IMG/VR virus record: IMGVR_UViG_3300022697_000102 | Location: 1-36,287 of that record | Reading direction: 5' to 3' (one strand) | DNA length: 36,287 nucleotides | Source of the DNA: a virus | Taxonomy: Duplodnaviria; Caudoviricetes | In this document: in pieces, positions 26,294 to 36,287 of the stretch | How positions within the stretch are numbered: position 1 is the stretch's first letter | Layout: every line of letters begins with the position of its first letter | The notes under the pieces: generated by a model | Database searches by the model: none | The model's input: only the letters and a program-made list of their open reading frames with translations | What the model was told of the DNA's origin: nothing | Position numbers and translations under genes: made by a program

Positions 26294-26342
26294 TTGACAT
26301 TTCCGGTAACGTCGCTATAATGAATATAGAAATCGAGTCAAT
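26294..26342 (+). promoter_or_regulatory. sigma70-type promoter with operator-like spacer (copy 1)
   Basis: TTGACA-16 bp-TATAAT; shares TTGACATTTCCGGTAA and ATCGAGTCAAT with 29179-29226. Confidence 0.8.
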
Positions 26343-29178: not shown

Positions 29179-29226
29179 TTGACATTTCCGGTAATTAATA
29201 TATGATGAATTGTAGATCGAGTCAAT
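29179..29226 (+). promoter_or_regulatory. sigma70-type promoter with operator-like spacer (copy 2)
   Basis: TTGACA-16 bp-TATGAT; same conserved blocks as 26294-26342. Confidence 0.8.
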
Positions 29227-29245: not shown

Positions 29246-29989
29246 ATGGAAGGATTGGCCGAATTAGCAAAAGCAGTCATTGGAGTCATGAAAGATGTCA
29301 GAGGTATGGAGAAGGGATCTCATGTTGGTTCAGGTAGAAGCGCATATGATGGGACAAAAGATCAGGACGTTAAAGATGCGTTTAACAGCGCGATGGTTAA
29401 TCATGGACTCTGCATTTTGCCGGTAGAGATTAAAGAGGAGACAAAAATAGATAGATGGGAGGCTCCTGATCCCTACAAAGAAGGGAAGAAAGTAACAAAG
29501 CAGAGCGTTTTTACCAAAGTCTTAACTCGATATCTACTCCTGCATGAGTCGGGGCAAAGCAAAATTATATCTGGCTATGGACATGGGGTCGATCCTCAAG
29601 ATAAAGGCGCAGGTAAAGCAACTACATACGCTCTAAAAAATGCGTTACTACTGACATTCTTGACCCCAGTCGGGAAAATGCCAGACACAGACGAAACGCA
29701 TTCTGGAGATATTGAGACAAAGCCCAGCCAGAACGGAACAAGGCCGAAAGCAGAAAACGAGATAACGAAAGATTATAAATTTTTGCACCAAGTCGGGATG
29801 GTCAAAGCTGAACTTTTTGAGGCAGTCGGGGGCGAAGTAGGCGAGAAACTTTACCGCGCAGAACTAAAAATAAGAGGATGCAAAAAATCAAATGAATTAT
29901 TGGACAGAAAAGACCAAGTGGGGTTCTATCAGGCCATTGGGGTCTTGATCGAAGAATCCAAAAAGACGGAGGCAGAAAATGGCAAATAG
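29246..29989 (+). CDS. ERF-family single-strand annealing protein
   Basis: LLHESGQ, G.G.D.QDKGAGKATTYALKNALL..F...D.D. Confidence 0.88.
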   Translation: MEGLAELAKAVIGVMKDVRGMEKGSHVGSGRSAYDGTKDQDVKDAFNSAMVNHGLCILPVEIKEETKIDRWEAPDPYKEGKKVTKQSVFTKVLTRYLLLHESGQSKIISGYGHGVDPQDKGAGKATTYALKNALLLTFLTPVGKMPDTDETHSGDIETKPSQNGTRPKAENEITKDYKFLHQVGMVKAELFEAVGGEVGEKLYRAELKIRGCKKSNELLDRKDQVGFYQAIGVLIEESKKTEAENGK

Positions 29990-30326
29990 CTCGGTGGTGG
30001 TACAAATGGGGCATCTAACCAGAGATATTGACATTATGACGACAACATCAGGCGTTACGATAGCATCGTTCGGGTTGGCAACCAATCATAAATATAAAGA
30101 CAAAGAAGAGGTATGTTTTATTGATGTCAAAATCTTCGGGGCATTGGCTGAGAATTGCGTCAAATATCTCTCGAAAGGATCGGCTTGCCAGGTAATCGGT
30201 CGGTTGTCTTTGGACAGATGGGATAAGGACGGCGTTAAACATCAAAAGCATGTGATTGTTGCAAGCTCTGTTGTTTTTCTGAGTTCAAAACAAGGTAATA
30301 ATGAAGATGATCAGGTTCCGTTTTGA
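29979..30326 (+). CDS. ssb: single-stranded DNA-binding protein
   Basis: GHLTRD, FGLATN, FG.LAENC.KYL.KG, GRL, acidic DDQVPF C-terminus. Confidence 0.95.
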   Translation: MANSSVVVQMGHLTRDIDIMTTTSGVTIASFGLATNHKYKDKEEVCFIDVKIFGALAENCVKYLSKGSACQVIGRLSLDRWDKDGVKHQKHVIVASSVVFLSSKQGNNEDDQVPF

Positions 30327-30835
30327 AGAAAAATTATCTTTACCTGGACATCGAAAAGCGAAAAGAAATAGATGCCTACCTAGAAGCATCCGGAGGGGAA
30401 TTCGCAACCGACAATCAGGAAAAAGAATATGACCGCCTTGACTGGTCGATTGATGCAAATGTGGTTGATTACATAAAAGCCTGGAAAGAAAAAAAGGCTT
30501 TAATTGACTCAATTAAAGCCGAAATAACCCGCATGAAGGACTACTTGGATGCAGAGGTAAAAAGACAAGAAAGTATTGAGCAGTCTCTTAGGTTTGCCCT
30601 TGACGATAGGCATACGGAAAGCCTTGATTACGGGATTAACTCGGTATCTTTATGTAATGTCGCACCATCACTTCCTCCAGCAGAAGAAATAGAAGATATG
30701 GTGCCAGATGCCTACAGGATAGAAATACCTGCCACATCAAAGGTTGATCGTCGGCTTTTGTTAAAGGGGGTCAAGGCTGGAGACGTTTTCGGCATAGAAT
30801 TAATTACTGATAAAAAACGGTTGAAGGTGTCATGA
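30323..30835 (+). CDS. siphovirus Gp157-like protein
   Basis: Coiled coil (IKAEITRMK), VPDAYR, KVDRRLLLKGVKAG...G.EL; follows ERF and SSB. Confidence 0.7.
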   Translation: MKKNYLYLDIEKRKEIDAYLEASGGEFATDNQEKEYDRLDWSIDANVVDYIKAWKEKKALIDSIKAEITRMKDYLDAEVKRQESIEQSLRFALDDRHTESLDYGINSVSLCNVAPSLPPAEEIEDMVPDAYRIEIPATSKVDRRLLLKGVKAGDVFGIELITDKKRLKVS

Positions 30836-30931: not shown

Positions 30932-31243
30932 CTATAACGTAGAGATAACACGCATACTACAGACACAACCCTAATGCAGATAAGGTGATGTGATCTATAC
31001 AAAATACATAAATCTAAAGAAAGCGCATTTACGATTTTTATTACGGGTCTCAAGGCTTTTAAAACAAAAGTCAAACGTAATAAAAAATAGTACACTTATG
31101 ACACCAACGTAATATACAGTGTACTATTTTTTATGCCTTGAGTGCAACCTTGGCTTTGTGTTTTATTATTTCTCATGTTGCATGCTCGGCACGGCGATGA
31201 GATTACGAAGTGTTCTGCGGTCGGGTTGAGTGATTGGTTGGAT
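30932..31243 (-). repeat. split or degenerate attC-like site (arms 30932-30971 and 31206-31243)
   Basis: Both arms align to the intact site at 34681-34766. Confidence 0.7.
31080..31134. repeat. 17 bp perfect inverted repeat with 21 nt loop
   Basis: ATAAAAAATAGTACACT / AGTGTACTATTTTTTAT. Confidence 0.9.
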
Positions 31244-31259: not shown

Positions 31260-31637
31260 ATGGCAAACATTGGAAAAGCAATGAAGGAAGATATGGCAAT
31301 CCTTAATGGCCACGGGTCTTATGGTCATTTTAGCTGTAATCACTTGTTAGATTTGGATGATTTAGGCGGTGATGGATACCCTACAGTAAAAAGCTTGGAG
31401 AACATATCAAATTATACGGGCGACTTTTATCACTTGATTGATTCAATTTCTTTCATGTTTTCAGAATACGGGAGATGCGAATTAAGTAGATGTGGCAACA
31501 GGTGGGAGGTTGATACCGGAGGATGGAGCGGATGCGAAAGCGTTATTTCAGCTTTAGAAAGAAACCGTCTTTTTTGGGCTAAATGTTGGTTTCTTTCTAA
31601 ACGGGGAGGATATTATGAATTCATGACTAAAATATAA
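31260..31637 (+). CDS. cassette gene, phage-type hypothetical protein
   Basis: TGGWSGCESVISAL..N..FW...W..S.RGG.Y.F; stop TAA lies in the attC box. Confidence 0.75.
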   Translation: MANIGKAMKEDMAILNGHGSYGHFSCNHLLDLDDLGGDGYPTVKSLENISNYTGDFYHLIDSISFMFSEYGRCELSRCGNRWEVDTGGWSGCESVISALERNRLFWAKCWFLSKRGGYYEFMTKI

Positions 31638-31714
31638 CGTAGAGCTAACCCGCCGCCCTACGACACAAACCGAAGGCCGAGAATTTTTTCGGTAGGTTTA
31701 GAGGTTAGTTGTGT
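31632..31714 (-). repeat. attC-like site (degenerate right arm)
   Basis: ATATAAC GTAGA GCTAACCCGCCG ... CGGTAGGTTTAGA GGTTA GTTGTGT. Confidence 0.75.
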
Positions 31715-31735
31715 TGTCGAAGAATGGAGGAAATT

Positions 31736-31996
31736 GTGAAACTATTAATAGATTGCGATTGTGGTGCAGATATCCTTAAAGTCGAAAAGATTTGGGAAGA
31801 TAAAAGCAAGGGTCAATATTTGATTTGGCTCTGTATGTATAAGGGTGGATCGATGCACTGGTGGAACCGAGTCAAAGCCTCTTGGAATTATTTTTTATAT
31901 GGGGAGTTTTTTTATAATGATATTACTTTGGATCAAAATCAAATGGATGAATTCATTAATTTTCTAAACACAGTTAAGGCAAGCGAAGTTGTATAA
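31736..31996 (+). CDS. cassette gene, hypothetical protein
   Basis: GGAGG RBS then GTG; IDCDCG motif. Confidence 0.7.
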   Translation: MKLLIDCDCGADILKVEKIWEDKSKGQYLIWLCMYKGGSMHWWNRVKASWNYFLYGEFFYNDITLDQNQMDEFINFLNTVKASEVV

Positions 31997-32000
31997 TATT

Positions 32001-32084
32001 GAGTAACGCCAATGTTCAGCGGGCCGCAACGGACTTTGAGGCGACGCAAGGCGTAAACGGCTCCGCTGGAACGACTGGTTAGCT
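32001..32084 (-). repeat. attC site
   Basis: Minus strand: AGCTAAC CAGTC GTT(C)CAGCGG(A)GCCG ... CGGCCCGCTGAAC ATTGGC GTTACTC. Confidence 0.9.
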
Positions 32085-32099
32085 GGAAAAGGAGCGAAG

Positions 32100-32294
32100 A
32101 TGAAGATTTTATGTAAAACAAGTAATTGTCGTGGAGAAATGAAGCCTGGTATTGCTACAGGGCAGACGTTTGGATTGCATCTTGATTTTATTGGTGAACC
32201 CCCTGGAAGAGGCTGTACAATGTCGCCGGGAGGTCCGGGGAAACTTATCTCTGTTTTGAAATGTGAAAAGTGCGGGTATAGTTTTTCCATCTAA
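32100..32294 (+). CDS. cassette gene, zinc-ribbon protein
   Basis: AAGGAG RBS; CKTSNC...KCEKCG; stop lies in attC box. Confidence 0.75.
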   Translation: MKILCKTSNCRGEMKPGIATGQTFGLHLDFIGEPPGRGCTMSPGGPGKLISVLKCEKCGYSFSI

Positions 32295-32748
32295 CGACCG
32301 GATCACCCGCCGCCCCACGGCTACCAAAAGAAGATAATACGAGGACTGCTATAGTATTGTCTTTCGTTTTATCATCATCTGAAAGACTGAAAATAAGAGA
32401 CAATAACGCCCATGGAACAGCAGCAGAAAACATTCTCAATACCCACTCTGGCAAACTGAAGGGAGTAAAACTATGATTTATATAAGCATTAAGATCATCC
32501 GTAAGTCTCTTGTGGATTTTCAGGAAGTCATTATTGATAGATTTTTTTATATTATCTTCAAGTGCTACCAGTTTATCAAGAAGTGTTGTTGCTCTTTCAA
32601 TTCTGCTCAGTCTAAAGTGACCCGTATAATTTTCGTAAGTGATGATTATCGCAACGACCAGAAAAGATAGTGTCAAAATGAACAACAATCGTTTCCATGT
32701 GAAGTCAGTTACTAATTTTTCAAGGAACTGAAATATAGGATCGAACAT
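32245..32748 (-). pseudogene. membrane-protein cassette gene, probably 3'-truncated
   Basis: TM helices; C-terminus (SRGAAGDPVVR...) is read through the attC half site and antisense to the neighbour gene. Confidence 0.6.
32289..32318 (-). repeat. attC half site (left arm only)
   Basis: ATCTAAC GACCG GATCACCCGCCGCCC. Confidence 0.7.
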
Positions 32749-32761
32749 ATTAAATTATGAG

Positions 32762-32789
32762 TCCTAACGTAGCGGTAAACCGGCCGCTG
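32762..32789 (-). repeat. attC half site (left arm only)
   Basis: TCCTAAC GTAGC GGTAAACCGGCCGC. Confidence 0.65.
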
Positions 32790-32818
32790 AATGAATTGAA
32801 TAAAATAGGAGGGTAATA

Positions 32819-33165
32819 ATGACAACTTGGGGAATGTATTGGTTTACAAGATTAGACAATCTGCAAGGATTAGGAGTAGCAGGGGCAATTGCATGTGGTG
32901 TCGGTCTTTTTGGTTTAGTTTTGGTATCAACAATAGAAGGGACTGACCACGCTAATAAATGGGGTTTTAAGTTAGGTTCTTTTTTTTTATGTTTCTCCTT
33001 CTATCGCTATTTACCCCCACTCAGAAAGAAGCTGCGGAGATTTGGTTGATACCAAAAATGTTAAATAACGAGCAGATCGGCAATATAGTCGCTAATTCTT
33101 TGGAGATATTGGAAGCTAAAACCAAGGAATATCTTGATGATTTAGCTGAAAAAGAAAGCAACTGA
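32819..33165 (+). CDS. cassette gene, membrane protein split by a frameshift at a T9 run
   Basis: Frame 0 MTTWGMYWFTRLDNL...; -1 frame MFLLLSLFTPTQKEAAEIWLIPKMLNNEQ...KESN stops just before the next attC. Confidence 0.7.
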
Positions 33166-33181
33166 CGGCTGGGTATTTTCC

Positions 33182-33267
33182 ACCCAACGTAGCGATAACC
33201 CAGCCGACAACGGGCCAGCCTGAAAGCCGCGAAGTATTACCGGCTCGGGTTGATTGCCTGGTTGGGT
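33182..33267 (-). repeat. attC site
   Basis: ACCCAAC GTAGC GATAACCCAGCCG ... CGGCT(C)GGGTT(G)ATT GCCTG GTTGGGT. Confidence 0.9.
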
Positions 33268-33287
33268 GGATAAATGGAGGGTGTAAA

Positions 33288-33485
33288 ATGGAAGACTTTT
33301 CTGCATGGGAAGCGATATTGAAATTGCTAAATAAGGCGGAGTATATGGGGGTAGTTTATGAATATGATGATGGATATAAATCCTTTATCTGCCCTATATG
33401 CAAAAAAAGGGAAGGGCATGGGCATTATTCTGGTTGCGAATTGGAAAACGCAAAATCAATAATTAGTTCGATGCTTTATAGTTAA
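33288..33485 (+). CDS. cassette gene, CxxC-H-C zinc-finger protein
   Basis: GGAGG RBS; CPICK....GH...C. Confidence 0.7.
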   Translation: MEDFSAWEAILKLLNKAEYMGVVYEYDDGYKSFICPICKKREGHGHYSGCELENAKSIISSMLYS

Positions 33486-33507
33486 ATAGATGATGGTATT
33501 ATTTTCC

Positions 33508-33593
33508 ATCCAACGTTGAGCTAACCCGCCGCCCAGAGACCCTGCCAGAAGGCCGCAAAGTAATGCCGAGTCGGGTTCATTGCCTTGTTAGGC
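33508..33593 (-). repeat. attC site (imperfect arm pairing)
   Basis: ATCCAAC GTTGA GCTAACCCG ... TCGGGTT(C)ATT GCCTT GTTAGGC. Confidence 0.85.
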
Positions 33594-33610
33594 ATTTTTG
33601 GAGAACAGAC

Positions 33611-33829
33611 ATGAAAAACTGTAATGATTGCAAGTATTCAGAATGGGATAAAACAAAAATTGGGAGACTTCACCCATCCGGTTCTGGGAGATGTACTTAT
33701 CCATTTGAGGTTCCAGCCCTGCCACAGTCAATGTATTGGGTCGGTAAAAATACACCCCACCCAAACGGTGGGCAGATAAATAGAAAACATGTATTTGAAA
33801 ACAATTGCGTATATTATGGCCCAGCCTAA
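33611..33829 (+). CDS. cassette gene, Cys-rich hypothetical protein
   Basis: GGAG RBS; MKNCNDCKYSEW..T..GRLHPSG.GRC; stop lies in attC box. Confidence 0.75.
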   Translation: MKNCNDCKYSEWDKTKIGRLHPSGSGRCTYPFEVPALPQSMYWVGKNTPHPNGGQINRKHVFENNCVYYGPA

Positions 33830-33908
33830 CGTTTAGTTAACCCGCCAGCTACCGGCACAACCTAAAATCGAGAAGCGTTACCTGGTCGGGTTTATCTACT
33901 GGTTAGGT
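33824..33908 (-). repeat. attC site
   Basis: GCCTAAC GTTTA GTTAACCCGCCAG ... CTGG(T)CGGGTT(T)ATC TACTG GTTAGGT. Confidence 0.9.
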
Positions 33909-33954
33909 TTGTTTTAAGGATGTATTTTATCTTTAATTTGTTTTCTCTGATCGC

Positions 33955-34024
33955 TTGACATAACCGCTTATGATATGTTAATTTAGATCATGAGCAACGC
34001 GCAAACAAACAAGGAGAAAACAAA
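33955..34024 (+). promoter_or_regulatory. cassette-internal promoter and leader (copy 1)
   Basis: TTGACA-18 bp-TAATTT with TG extension; 32 bp identical to 35510-35541; AAGGAG RBS. Confidence 0.75.
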
Positions 34025-34234
34025 ATGATCGAATCTGGACTATTAAAAGCTGAAAATTTAGGTGGGAATGCTTTTCTTAATGGCGCAATGAGTGCCCCAT
34101 TCTTAGATGCAGAAATGATGAGAATGCTTGAAGGAAACAAAGACAGAGACAACGGAATAAGGTTGATGAAAGCGTGGCACAAAGGATATTACAACGCAAA
34201 TGTGGTGGCGATGGATGCGATGCCCACACTGTAA
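34025..34234 (+). CDS. cassette gene, hypothetical protein
   Basis: RBS and promoter upstream. Confidence 0.7.
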   Translation: MIESGLLKAENLGGNAFLNGAMSAPFLDAEMMRMLEGNKDRDNGIRLMKAWHKGYYNANVVAMDAMPTL

Positions 34235-34382
34235 AAAGGGAATAGATGACAAAGAGATTTCTGCCTATCTTGGTTCAAAGGGTGGGCGGACTTCTAAGCG
34301 AGAAATTTCAAAAGAGGCACAGGCAAAAATGCAAACCGCAAGAAAAAAGTCAAAACCAAAACAGAAAAAGACTGCAACCTAA
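34215..34382 (+). CDS. cassette gene, small basic protein (CPHC, LGSKGG), possible DNA binder
   Basis: MRCPHCKKGIDDKEISAYLGSKGGRTSKR; stop lies in attC box. Confidence 0.65.
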   Translation: MRCPHCKKGIDDKEISAYLGSKGGRTSKREISKEAQAKMQTARKKSKPKQKKTAT

Positions 34383-34462
34383 CGCTCGGGTTAACCGGCT
34401 CGGCGACGACTGGGTGTGAAATCGAGAAGCATTACCGCGTCTGGTTTAACCCCTGGTTAGAT
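34377..34462 (-). repeat. attC site
   Basis: ACCTAAC GCTCGG GTTAACCGG ... (T)CTGGTT(T)AAC CCCTG GTTAGAT. Confidence 0.9.
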
Positions 34463-34479
34463 TGATTGGAGGTAAGACG

Positions 34480-34686
34480 ATGAAAAGAAAAGAAGACATT
34501 CAAAAGCCAAAAGAATTAAATAGCTGGGATTTCTCTGACAGAATCCAAGTCCCAGATGGGTATGATTTAAAGACTATCCCAGATATGACAAGAGATAATA
34601 TGCAAACCCTGATAGAAGAACACAATCACTTAGTTCGAGTTGTGCTGAGAATATGTCAGGAGAAGCAAATAATATTTGAAATCTAA
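34480..34686 (+). CDS. cassette gene, hypothetical protein
   Basis: GGAGG RBS; stop lies in attC box. Confidence 0.75.
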   Translation: MKRKEDIQKPKELNSWDFSDRIQVPDGYDLKTIPDMTRDNMQTLIEEHNHLVRVVLRICQEKQIIFEI

Positions 34687-34766
34687 CGTTGAGCTAACCC
34701 GCCGCCCACAGACACAACCCGAAGGCCGCGAAGTGTTATGCGGTCGGGTTGAGCGACTGGTTATCT
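34681..34766 (-). repeat. attC site (clearest example)
   Basis: Minus strand: AGATAAC CAGTC GCT(C)AACCCG(A)CCGC ... GCGGCGGGTTAGC TCAAC GTTAGAT. Confidence 0.95.
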
Positions 34767-35344
34767 CATTTTGGGGTATGTGATGGTTTTTCAATTTTCT
34801 CTGGTTCATTTTCTTGCTCTGCTAGTTGTCTGTTCGATCCTTGGTTTTTCTGCTGGATATTTTTCAGGTCGCCGAAAACTTGTTCAAGAGCTTGTGAAAT
34901 ATTTACTTCAACATGGACAATCTGATTTGGCGAATCGGGTTTCTGTTTTGAGAAATGAAGACAGACCATAACAATAATTGCAAAATACGCGGCAAGTTCT
35001 GCAGCATTTTTTGGCAAGAAGCGAGATAATGAGGAAAGAAATGGGAACTTTCTGGAAATTTCAGTTTTTATTTCTTCAGCGTTCGCGCCATTAAGTGCCT
35101 TATTTCTCAGAAATTCAATAGCGTAAAGGACAAGATTGCATTCAATGGTGTTAAAGATTCTTGCTGAAGCATGAGTGTATATCCCATCTGGAATTTTTCC
35201 AGTGCCTTTGCATTTTGGGCATGGGCAAGCCTTATTCCCTATGGATTGAACCGAAAGAAGAGGGCCAGTACCAAAAATGCTATTGGAGAACCAAACTGTT
35301 TCGCAATGCGGCGTTTCGCAAATCACTGGGACTAGAGGTTGCAT
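34766..35344 (-). CDS. cassette gene in canonical attC orientation; zinc-ribbon plus TM protein
   Basis: 192 aa fills the cassette; CETPHC...CPKCKG.G.IPDG.Y; stop abuts the attC. Confidence 0.8.
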   Translation of the reverse strand: MQPLVPVICETPHCETVWFSNSIFGTGPLLSVQSIGNKACPCPKCKGTGKIPDGIYTHASARIFNTIECNLVLYAIEFLRNKALNGANAEEIKTEISRKFPFLSSLSRFLPKNAAELAAYFAIIVMVCLHFSKQKPDSPNQIVHVEVNISQALEQVFGDLKNIQQKNQGSNRQLAEQENEPEKIEKPSHTPK

Positions 35345-35363
35345 ATTTTATTAACCTTTGTCG

Positions 35364-35449
35364 AGATAACGCTCGGGTTAACCGGCGCGACTAGGGCAAT
35401 ATGTGAAATCGAGAAGTGTTACCGCGTCGGGTTTAACCCCTGGTTGGGC
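35364..35449 (-). repeat. attC site
   Basis: AGATAAC GCTCGG GTTAACCGGCGCG ... CGCG(T)CGGGTT(T)AAC CCCTG GTTGGGC. Confidence 0.9.
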
Positions 35450-35490
35450 AGATTTAAGTATGGATCTTTATTTTGCTTTGTTGAATACGC

Positions 35491-35561
35491 TTGACAGTTA
35501 CATCGTGACTATGTTAATTTAGATCATGAGCAACGCGCAAAACAACAAAGGAGAAAATAAA
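35491..35561 (+). promoter_or_regulatory. cassette-internal promoter and leader (copy 2)
   Basis: TTGACA-18 bp-TAATTT; same leader as 33974-34005. Confidence 0.75.
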
Positions 35562-35771
35562 ATGAGAACATTAATTGATAATAGAAAAGACGCTGCGGAT
35601 ATATTGGTTGAATATGCAAACGGTGGCAGCTTCACACTAAAATTGCAAAACAATGTTGACCTTGGAAACCGACGCGGAATAAAGGCCACATATGAAAATG
35701 GCATGATCGAGGTGACGACTAAAAAGCTGGATAGTCTCTCTAAATTATATAAAGTTGAATGCAATTTTTAA
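35562..35771 (+). CDS. cassette gene, hypothetical protein
   Basis: AAGGAG RBS; ATG in the same position as 34025 relative to the shared leader. Confidence 0.7.
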   Translation: MRTLIDNRKDAADILVEYANGGSFTLKLQNNVDLGNRRGIKATYENGMIEVTTKKLDSLSKLYKVECNF

Positions 35772-35775
35772 TCAC

Positions 35776-35949
35776 ATGCCGATGACCAGCGCGGAAAAGA
35801 TGACCGCCCTTCGGAAACGTCGGGCGGAAGCTGGGATCGTAGAGCGCACATACTGGGGCAAAGAAGAAGATCACAAAAAAATGAAAAATATTGAGTCCGC
35901 TTTGTTGGCTAGGATTAAAAGGGCCAACATGAAAAAGATTGAGACCTAA
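35776..35949 (+). CDS. cassette gene, small putative RHH-like regulator or antitoxin
   Basis: MPMTSAEKMTALRKRRAEAGIVERTYWG; homologous to 26359..26520; stop lies in attC box. Confidence 0.7.
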   Translation: MPMTSAEKMTALRKRRAEAGIVERTYWGKEEDHKKMKNIESALLARIKRANMKKIET

Positions 35950-36027
35950 CGTAGCGATAACCCTGCCACCAAGGGCACGATCTAAAATCGACGAGTAACA
36001 CTGCTCGGGTTGAGGGACTTGTTGTAT
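35944..36027 (-). repeat. attC site (imperfect arm pairing)
   Basis: ACCTAAC GTAGC GATAACCC ... TCGGGTT(G)AGG GACTT GTTGTAT. Confidence 0.8.
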
Positions 36028-36044
36028 GGAAAAGGAGAAACGAC

Positions 36045-36242
36045 ATGACCCATTCATTGAAGATTGAAGAGCCGTATTTAGAAGCAAAATTAGACGGACA
36101 TAAATTGTTTGAAATAAGATTCAACGATAGGGGTTTCCAGAAAGGGGACACAGTAGAATACACTGAGTATTCCTCCTCTACTTTTGAGTACACCAAACAC
36201 TATTTTGAGATAACTTACGTCGTTGTCTTCTGCCGGTGGTAA
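36045..36242 (+). CDS. cassette gene, DUF3850/ASCH-like protein (C-terminus possibly truncated)
   Basis: MTH.LKI...Y......G.K.FEIR.NDRGFQKGD...ITYV. Confidence 0.8.
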   Translation: MTHSLKIEEPYLEAKLDGHKLFEIRFNDRGFQKGDTVEYTEYSSSTFEYTKHYFEITYVVVFCRW

Positions 36243-36287
36243 CAGACCTTCACGAATATTAACCTGTATCGAGGGCAAGATTAGCCG

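Follow-up and report, generated by a model that had tools for sequence, protein, structure and literature searches.

Genes that face against their attC-like sites: a probable back-to-front integron cassette array in a phage genome

Why would the genes of an integron-like array, carried by a phage, face against the recombination sites that separate them? This question is raised by IMGVR_UViG_3300022697_000102, a whole virus record analysed here over its full length (the window: 36,287 bases, linear, estimated to be 74% complete), in which an array of attC-like sites starts after a Gp157/Gam-like gene and extends to the contig end. Integrons are treated as bacterial devices. A first-pass annotation of this DNA had proposed that most genes of the array are inverted relative to the polarity of the sites, and that inversion is confirmed. 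Judged from sequence, the array is probably a back-to-front integron cassette array, that is, a phage integron read from phage promoters, and the first reading of inverted cassettes as a whole is partly supported.

The array holds nine full attC-like sites, spanning 31632-36027, along with two half sites and a remnant split in two:

30932-30990, minus strand: attC-like remnant, R' side, decayed (matches site 1 at 66%)
31206-31243, minus strand: R''/L'' half of an attC-like site, before the first gene (76% match to site 9)
31632-31714, minus strand: attC 1, decayed arms (30.9 bits; 3 of 12 arm pairs)
32001-32084, minus strand: attC 2 (34.2 bits; 12 of 12 arm pairs)
about 32289-32321, minus strand: attC 3, R'/L' half only
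about 32762-32787, minus strand: attC 4, R'/L' half only
33182-33267, minus strand: attC 5 (52.4 bits)
33508-33593, minus strand: attC 6 (48.7 bits)
33824-33908, minus strand: attC 7 (54.5 bits)
34377-34462, minus strand: attC 8 (39.8 bits)
34681-34766, minus strand: attC 9, site of a host-type cassette (71.1 bits, the top score; 96% identity over 79 nucleotides to a Nitrospira site)
35364-35449, minus strand: attC 10 (40.7 bits)
35944-36027, minus strand: attC 11 (30.1 bits)

At 83-86 bp, the full sites lie inside the length range of 57-141 bp given for attC sites in PMC5371416, and the invariant AAC and GTT of the R'' and R' cores are present in all nine. All eight intact sites share one layout when read on the minus strand: AAC, five nucleotides, three paired bases, one extra base, six paired bases and another extra base. 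The arms of these eight pair at 8-12 of 12 positions in this layout; the same layout read on the plus strand, with spacers freely chosen, pairs at 5-8 of 12. The second extra base is A (minus strand) in every intact site. The claim that the unpaired bases always lie on the right arm of the plus strand holds for eight of the nine sites and fails for the decayed site 1. For aadA7, whose extra-base layout had been given as canonical, the top strand as printed in the supplement of PMC9892861 matches the minus-strand layout of the window. Between the two pieces of the split remnant lies an inverted repeat with a 21-base centre (31086-31132), which may be an operator or a terminator.

Which strand of these sites corresponds to the top strand of a bacterial attC site? 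A site pattern taken from the window retrieved at least 122 stretches from bacterial and archaeal genomes, many of them chance matches in coding genes, and a covariance model was built on 36 distinct full sites from that set. All nine window sites score with this model on the minus strand (30.1-71.1 bits) and the plus strand never outscores it, with a best value of 15.1 bits, a result that is partly circular because the source pattern came from the minus strand. Independent evidence on polarity is the placement of genes and intI around such sites elsewhere. The sites of two Nitrospirota integrons point away from intI, as do all 15 model matches in 30 bacterial loci picked by intI alone, and 13 of 14 full-length matches in those loci adjoin a normally oriented gene. 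A single IntI query also retrieved 51 viral loci encoding an IntI relative (six of six tested pass the TIGR02249 cut-off); 25 of them carry 61 model sites, 59 of which lie upstream of intI and point away from it. Since such sites in bacteria point away from intI and accompany normal genes, the minus strand of the window is the top strand and the phage genes lie on the bottom strand. The array thus points from right to left, as first proposed.

Against this polarity, 12 of 14 genes lie on the plus strand (counting the frameshifted 32819/32989 as one) and two on the minus strand; the plus-strand majority noted at first stands, and its figure of 11 of 13 open reading frames does not. The genes are as follows:

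31260-31637, plus strand: reverse cassette gene, 125 amino acids, stop at crossover (no family match)
31727-31996, plus strand: reverse cassette gene, about 89 amino acids, stop 8 nucleotides before the core (open reading frame)
32100-32294, plus strand: reverse cassette gene, 64 amino acids, stop at crossover (open reading frame)
32245-32748, minus strand: host-type cassette gene in normal orientation, membrane protein, shortened by the loss that also removed half of attC 3 (41-50% identity to proteins of 182-183 amino acids)
32819-33165, plus strand: reverse cassette gene in two frames (open reading frames)
33288-33485, plus strand: reverse cassette gene, 65 amino acids (open reading frame)
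33611-33829, plus strand: reverse cassette gene, 72 amino acids, stop at crossover (open reading frame)
33955-34382, plus strand: two-gene reverse cassette with promoter-like repeat; genes at 34025-34234 and 34200-34382, the second with its stop at crossover
34480-34686, plus strand: reverse cassette gene, 68 amino acids, stop at crossover (open reading frame)
34766-35344, minus strand: host-type cassette gene in normal orientation, 192 amino acids, stop at R'' of attC 9 (Nitrospirota homologue)
35491-35949, plus strand: two-gene reverse cassette with promoter-like repeat; genes at 35562-35771 and 35776-35949, the second with its stop at crossover
36045-36242, plus strand: reverse cassette gene, DUF3850 (ASCH-like), end uncertain (Pfam E 7e-15, profile positions 1-61 of 77)

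Many gene ends coincide with site ends. Six stops at the predicted crossover TAA (31637, 32294, 33829, 34382, 34686 and 35949) are exactly where the first-pass annotation placed them. The TAA at site ends closes a frame of at least 44 codons in six of nine cases; elsewhere in the array, 9 of 102 TAA triplets do so (Fisher p 1.5e-4). Ribosome-binding sites were likewise said to lie just beyond R'', and a ribosome-site word followed by an open reading frame occurs there at six of nine sites; beyond R', on the other strand, none of the nine has one. A top-strand gene ending at R'', the usual mark of a cassette, is found only in the two host-type cassettes.

DUF3850 is the sole cassette gene named by family scans, and the Atlas gave no function for the cassette genes. 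The DUF3850 gene departs from its profile early (36220-36287) and the last bases match nothing tested, possibly an assembly artefact at the contig end. At 32819-33165, a related contig has one extra base near 32980, which points to a frameshift or an assembly error. A plus-strand open reading frame at 34771-34971 was discarded as a shadow of the 192-amino-acid minus-strand gene.

Are these units true cassettes? In a cassette array, the next cassette contributes the four variable bases of R', and these are expected to pair with the R'' of the cassette they come from. Among window units, pairing in this circle form is perfect in four of seven (four in a row, sites 6-9) and pairing in the array form in one of seven (shuffle p 0.002), with a mean of 3.0 of 4 bases paired in the circle form compared with 2.06 after shuffling. 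Inverted viral arrays give 30 of 34 perfect pairings in the circle form and 0 of 34 in the array form, viral IntI loci 23 of 29 in the circle form, and bacterial arrays 47 of 57 and 5 of 57, respectively. The test covers units of up to 800 bases and is blind to which end is cut. As far as base pairing can tell, these results exclude passive sites dropped between ordinary genes.

Related phages appear to exchange whole units. Loci L143 and L153 are identical at 1000 of 1000 positions beyond the G of R', agree at 66 of 81 within the site and are unrelated beyond R''. This switch implies that the body of a site moves together with the gene that adjoins its R''. Similar joints appear in one public run with relatives of the window: one contig matches the first gene and ends at 31641, which is four bases beyond the crossover; another covers 34094-34369 and then enters a different site; 11 contigs depart from the window at 34683 and 16 at 34762-34763. 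Alignment of these contigs at 85% likeness, in a single run where repeat-made joints are possible, makes this weak support. Indels between L186, L188 and L189 fall outside sites. The description of the units as purpose-built reverse cassettes therefore stands, given the circle-form pairing, the cassette swap at the crossover in relatives and the same build in many phages.

How widespread is the inversion? Two gene-blind patterns retrieved 19 viral loci. The counts leave out one locus and two sites present in duplicate, two weak matches on the opposite strand and any site closer than 200 bases to a locus end. The bacterial set of 53 loci comprises 51 of 80 with flanks, the others being chance matches in coding genes, and the two integron loci. 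A ribosome-site word with an open reading frame lies on the bottom strand at 28 of 56 viral sites, on the top at 4, on both at 1 and on neither at 23; the corresponding numbers for 109 bacterial sites are 2, 14, 1 and 92. By the longest open reading frame between sites, 20 of 43 viral intervals are inverted, 10 normal and 13 unclear, compared with 10, 50 and 10 of 70 in bacteria. The two orientation comparisons give Fisher p values of 6e-7 and 4e-6, on counts that contain related contigs and are not independent. In two-armed phages with divergent operons, the sites flip along with the genes (12 sites in L202 and 6 in L199). The inversion that was to be sought in phage contigs is thus common in viral loci and reversed in bacteria, and on these sequence counts we regard it as a common phage trait with exceptions. 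For L124, two methods disagree on the orientation. At L202:1063-3247, the starts of three genes fall within the site and their products share an N-terminal peptide, which suggests translation through the hairpin arm. A contig binned in a Flavobacteriales genome (L013:3199-4024) has sites with inverted genes and is possibly a prophage or a misbinned phage.

The viral IntI loci show how a complete phage array of this build is arranged. Leaving out two duplicates and one end site, 58 sites in these loci have a gene start on the bottom strand in 43 cases, on the top in 1 and on neither in 14. A motif resembling attI, with a constant end next to intI and a variable end next to the array, precedes intI in 22 of 45 viral loci examined; a looser match occurs in 2 of 30 bacterial loci. 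The layout in these phages is cassettes, then the attI-like site, then intI, all facing one way, an arrangement that the first-pass annotation had not proposed. Their neighbours include phage integrases, endolysin and spanin, and the cargo includes DNA methyltransferases. A quick tree, made with 34 bacterial rows from two phyla and a viral set that the single query may bias, places 29 of 37 viral IntIs in one viral-only branch (Shimodaira-Hasegawa-like approximate likelihood-ratio test, SH-aLRT, 92). Among loci L221-L271 (for example L240:2150-6948 and L271:3523-8308) are complete back-to-front integrons, often with a phage integrase in the same direction, and most of their IntIs group together.

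These IntI-bearing phages are likened to the phage of the window by array build, not by kinship. They have intI, and many also an attI-like site, beside the array, as a complete integron does, and this contig has neither. Measured as a cluster of attC sites lacking an integron integrase (CALIN), the window has 9 sites in 4.4 kb and no intI in the contig, which ends at the array end. Its decayed sites sit on the left of the array and its intact sites on the right, the side expected for attI and intI. By comparison with those phages, the array stops where the integrase would lie. We therefore put forward, tentatively and at somewhat less than an even chance, the broader proposal that phages run an integron lineage of their own: its cassettes would be mirror-built out of phage genes, its attI would stand at the distal end of an early operon, and its IntI group would be largely restricted to phages. 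Polarity would then split cassettes into phage ones, read only in phage arrays, and host ones, which land silent, and this contig would belong to the lineage, with a platform that is either borrowed or situated past the contig end.

Site anatomy, polarity, gene direction, unit boundaries and whole-unit exchange between related phages are what the letters themselves appear to establish; the mechanism proposed here goes further. The plus strand would fold when single-stranded, and IntI would cut it at each site's left end, after AA and before C. The moving unit would be site, ribosome site, gene and TAA, with the last bases re-forming R' in the circle. Because the hairpin site precedes the gene and the predicted recombining (bottom) strand is the coding strand, IntI would break and rejoin the DNA at the ends of genes, which the phage would read from its own promoters. 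New units would enter at the attI-like site, at the promoter-distal (right) end, while old units drift left and decay. The integrase may be the phage's own, encoded beyond the contig end, or come from the host or another phage. Ordinary host cassettes could also enter, landing antisense and probably silent, as two may have done here, one of them already shortened.

Several observations weigh against this proposal. No tyrosine recombinase or IntI was found in the 36,287-base, 74% complete contig, and a motif comparison that included the last 50 bases found no attI in it; none of 20 other viral records with such sites, four of them at least 90% complete, encodes an IntI above the cut-off. Four or five sites of the window are decayed or halved. 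The first extra base is C in four of the eight intact sites, A in three and G in one, so that four of eight are non-standard. The folding model predicts outer-core pairing above 0.7 in only three of nine sites, and folding of both strands gives similar energies that favour neither. The identical block of L143 and L153 begins about 20 nucleotides before the crossover, which leaves the exact point unfixed, and homologous exchange in a conserved arm would also fit. Phage arrays in normal orientation exist (TJE1, L151 and L144), and the relatedness of the surveyed contigs softens the survey.

These points carry different weight under the explanations that compete with a phage integron. The sites might have come from host integrons and now be repeats for the phage Erf, with genes swapped by homologous recombination and IntI minor in this phage. 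Such genes lie directly before the array here and in L199 and L202; in the window they are:

29246-30835, plus strand: Erf-like annealing protein, SSB and Gp157/Gam-like genes (PHROGs and Pfam matches), directly 5' of the array

The contig without IntI, the several decayed sites and the L143/L153 switch inside a shared 20-nucleotide block would all suit this explanation. Against it, the AAC and GTT cores are almost invariant and the arms covary: across 59 distinct phage sites, in an alignment that was fitted to the covariance model, 87.6% of cells are paired, compared with 25-40% when slid, and 13 of 19 pairs have two-sided changes. Pairing in the circle form with a mismatched array form is the product of a crossover at R', and the IntI-bearing phages share the build. 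We consider the Erf explanation unlikely. Quite improbable, in our judgement, is that IntI put host cassettes at secondary GTT sites, the reverse of phage stops (TAA then C), sparing the gene, and that their cargo was lost and passive sites remain. IntI is reported to insert at short GWT sites (bioRxiv 10.1101/2022.09.11.507474), six genes end exactly there, and the two host-type cassettes, one of them shortened, are placed so. That route predicts no pairing of gene ends with R'', and the perfect pairing in four of seven units here and 30 of 34 elsewhere largely refutes it; moreover, ribosome sites abut R'' and genes of L202 start inside the site. Secondary-site insertion may still be the origin of the first reverse units.

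If selection maintained the hairpins chiefly for what they do as RNA in the early transcript (processing, pausing or stabilizing), with DNA recombination a matter of history, one would expect them between genes on the coding strand and immediately ahead of ribosome sites, as they are, and four partial sites would be tolerable. The conserved features are nevertheless those that IntI reads (cores and extra bases), unit exchange is seen, and inner-helix pairs change from Watson-Crick to Watson-Crick with few one-sided changes, which makes this role a very improbable explanation. It is extremely improbable that the genes are normally oriented and the sites have the opposite asymmetry, with the minus strand recombined. 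The similar folding energies of the two strands would allow it, but near-identical bacterial sites have genes on the other strand, the site body moves with the R''-side gene, the host-type gene and site pair under the rule that minus is top, and the bottom strand was preferred in the PH101 assay. A phage integron with its cassettes back to front remains the reading that we favour.

The two minus-strand genes are taken, from their sequences, to be ordinary host cassettes that entered the array antisense to the phage operon, where incoming host cassettes are likely to be silent. The 192-amino-acid gene has a homologue of 33% identity in 1 of 301 Nitrospirota genomes searched, in a normal cassette as judged by eye, whose site was not scored by the covariance model; the Nitrospira genome that matches attC 9 has intI. 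The shortened gene at 32245-32748 loses its alignment with two homologues after about residue 135, and half of its site is gone. A SLATT-like identity for this gene (PADLOC E 0.017) was weak and was not accepted. The exact site subfamily occurs in 1 of 351 Nitrospirota genomes and in 0 of 5 others, and short matches were found in 10 of 41 relatives, nearly all at sites and none to a cassette gene. We treat the Nitrospirota matches as a lead to the host, not a host assignment.

From which promoters would the cassettes be read? The genes point at the expected attI, the reverse of a layout read from the integron cassette promoter (Pc). The cassettes are likely to be read from phage promoters, as first suggested; the added claim of silence from Pc does not hold for the pair of two-gene cassettes, which have likely promoters of their own. 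These carry a promoter-like repeat (33955-34025 and 35491-35561), the first copy sharing 52 nucleotides with 35510-35561 at 85%. Promoter and terminator scans of the window were at chance level (20 versus 17.9 and 8 versus 6.6), and the promoter scan did not flag the repeat at 33955-34025. Both cassettes with the repeat end in a small basic protein that may regulate the leader. Two similar near-consensus sigma-70-type promoters at 26294-26325 and 29179-29210 may drive early genes and the array.

Before the array, the phage encodes terminase, portal, head protease, major head and tape-measure proteins (PHROGs and Pfam). Close relatives are scarce: the window had no match among 50,697 GenBank phages, the first cassette protein none in viral contigs and the cassette proteins none in the surveyed viral loci; of 24 loci with Erf relatives only 1 gave matches to the attC model, and one DNA pattern from the site search retrieved 0 viral contigs. 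GC skew is positive along the whole contig, a signal confounded with coding strand, and gene direction and skew flip together in two-armed phages. This contig, 74% complete, has no replication genes. According to PMC5371416, the substrate of IntI is the bottom strand in folded form, and the lagging-strand template is where such folding is favoured. Should replication and transcription run in the same direction, the lagging-strand template would be the coding strand, and shuffling would be favoured.

A phage-side integron, if true, would provide site-specific shuffling of accessory genes such as DNA methyltransferases. Host cassettes, of which many chromosomal ones are described as anti-phage (bioRxiv 10.1101/2024.07.02.601686), would land silent in phage arrays. 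Cassettes built backwards from phage genes would amount to cassette making without a gene preceding the site, which makes the origin of cassettes testable, and orientation would be a simple marker separating phage from host cassettes in metagenomes.

Phage attC clusters are already known (CALINs; Qi et al. 2023, PMC9892861). Like the window, they are clusters of attC sites with small genes in phage genomes whose records have no integrase. As section 3.4 of that paper reports, IntI1 recombined five of six phage sites, the bottom strand above the top, including two sites of PH101 with the bottom strand preferred. The two assayed PH101 sites have their top strand on plus, and the surrounding annotated genes are on minus; inverted sites can therefore work. 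Of three published phage arrays examined, PH101 and MW202573 are inverted and TJE1 is normal; the inverted ones are located at L219 (PH101 75922-77983) and L157:2619-3738. In Qi et al., figures and Dryad file aside, we found no mention of genes facing against sites, and the PH101 array is called typical. In the literature accessible to us, where subscription journals are thinly covered, we found no statement of gene-versus-site inversion in phages or of a phage integron of this layout, and the inversion thus appears new there.

Two other known systems frame the array. In secondary-site insertion at GWT (bioRxiv 10.1101/2022.09.11.507474), a C directly after a stop codon gives GTTA on the opposite strand, in agreement with the consensus described there, but such insertion gives scattered single events, whereas the window has tandem units with matched ends. 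With the sedentary integrons of bacteria, the window shares site anatomy, length, core pairing in the circle form and polarity relative to intI. It differs from them in having its genes on the bottom strand, with the site before the gene; and unlike bacterial integrons, the IntI-bearing phages have cassettes and intI in one direction, so that insertion would be promoter-distal.

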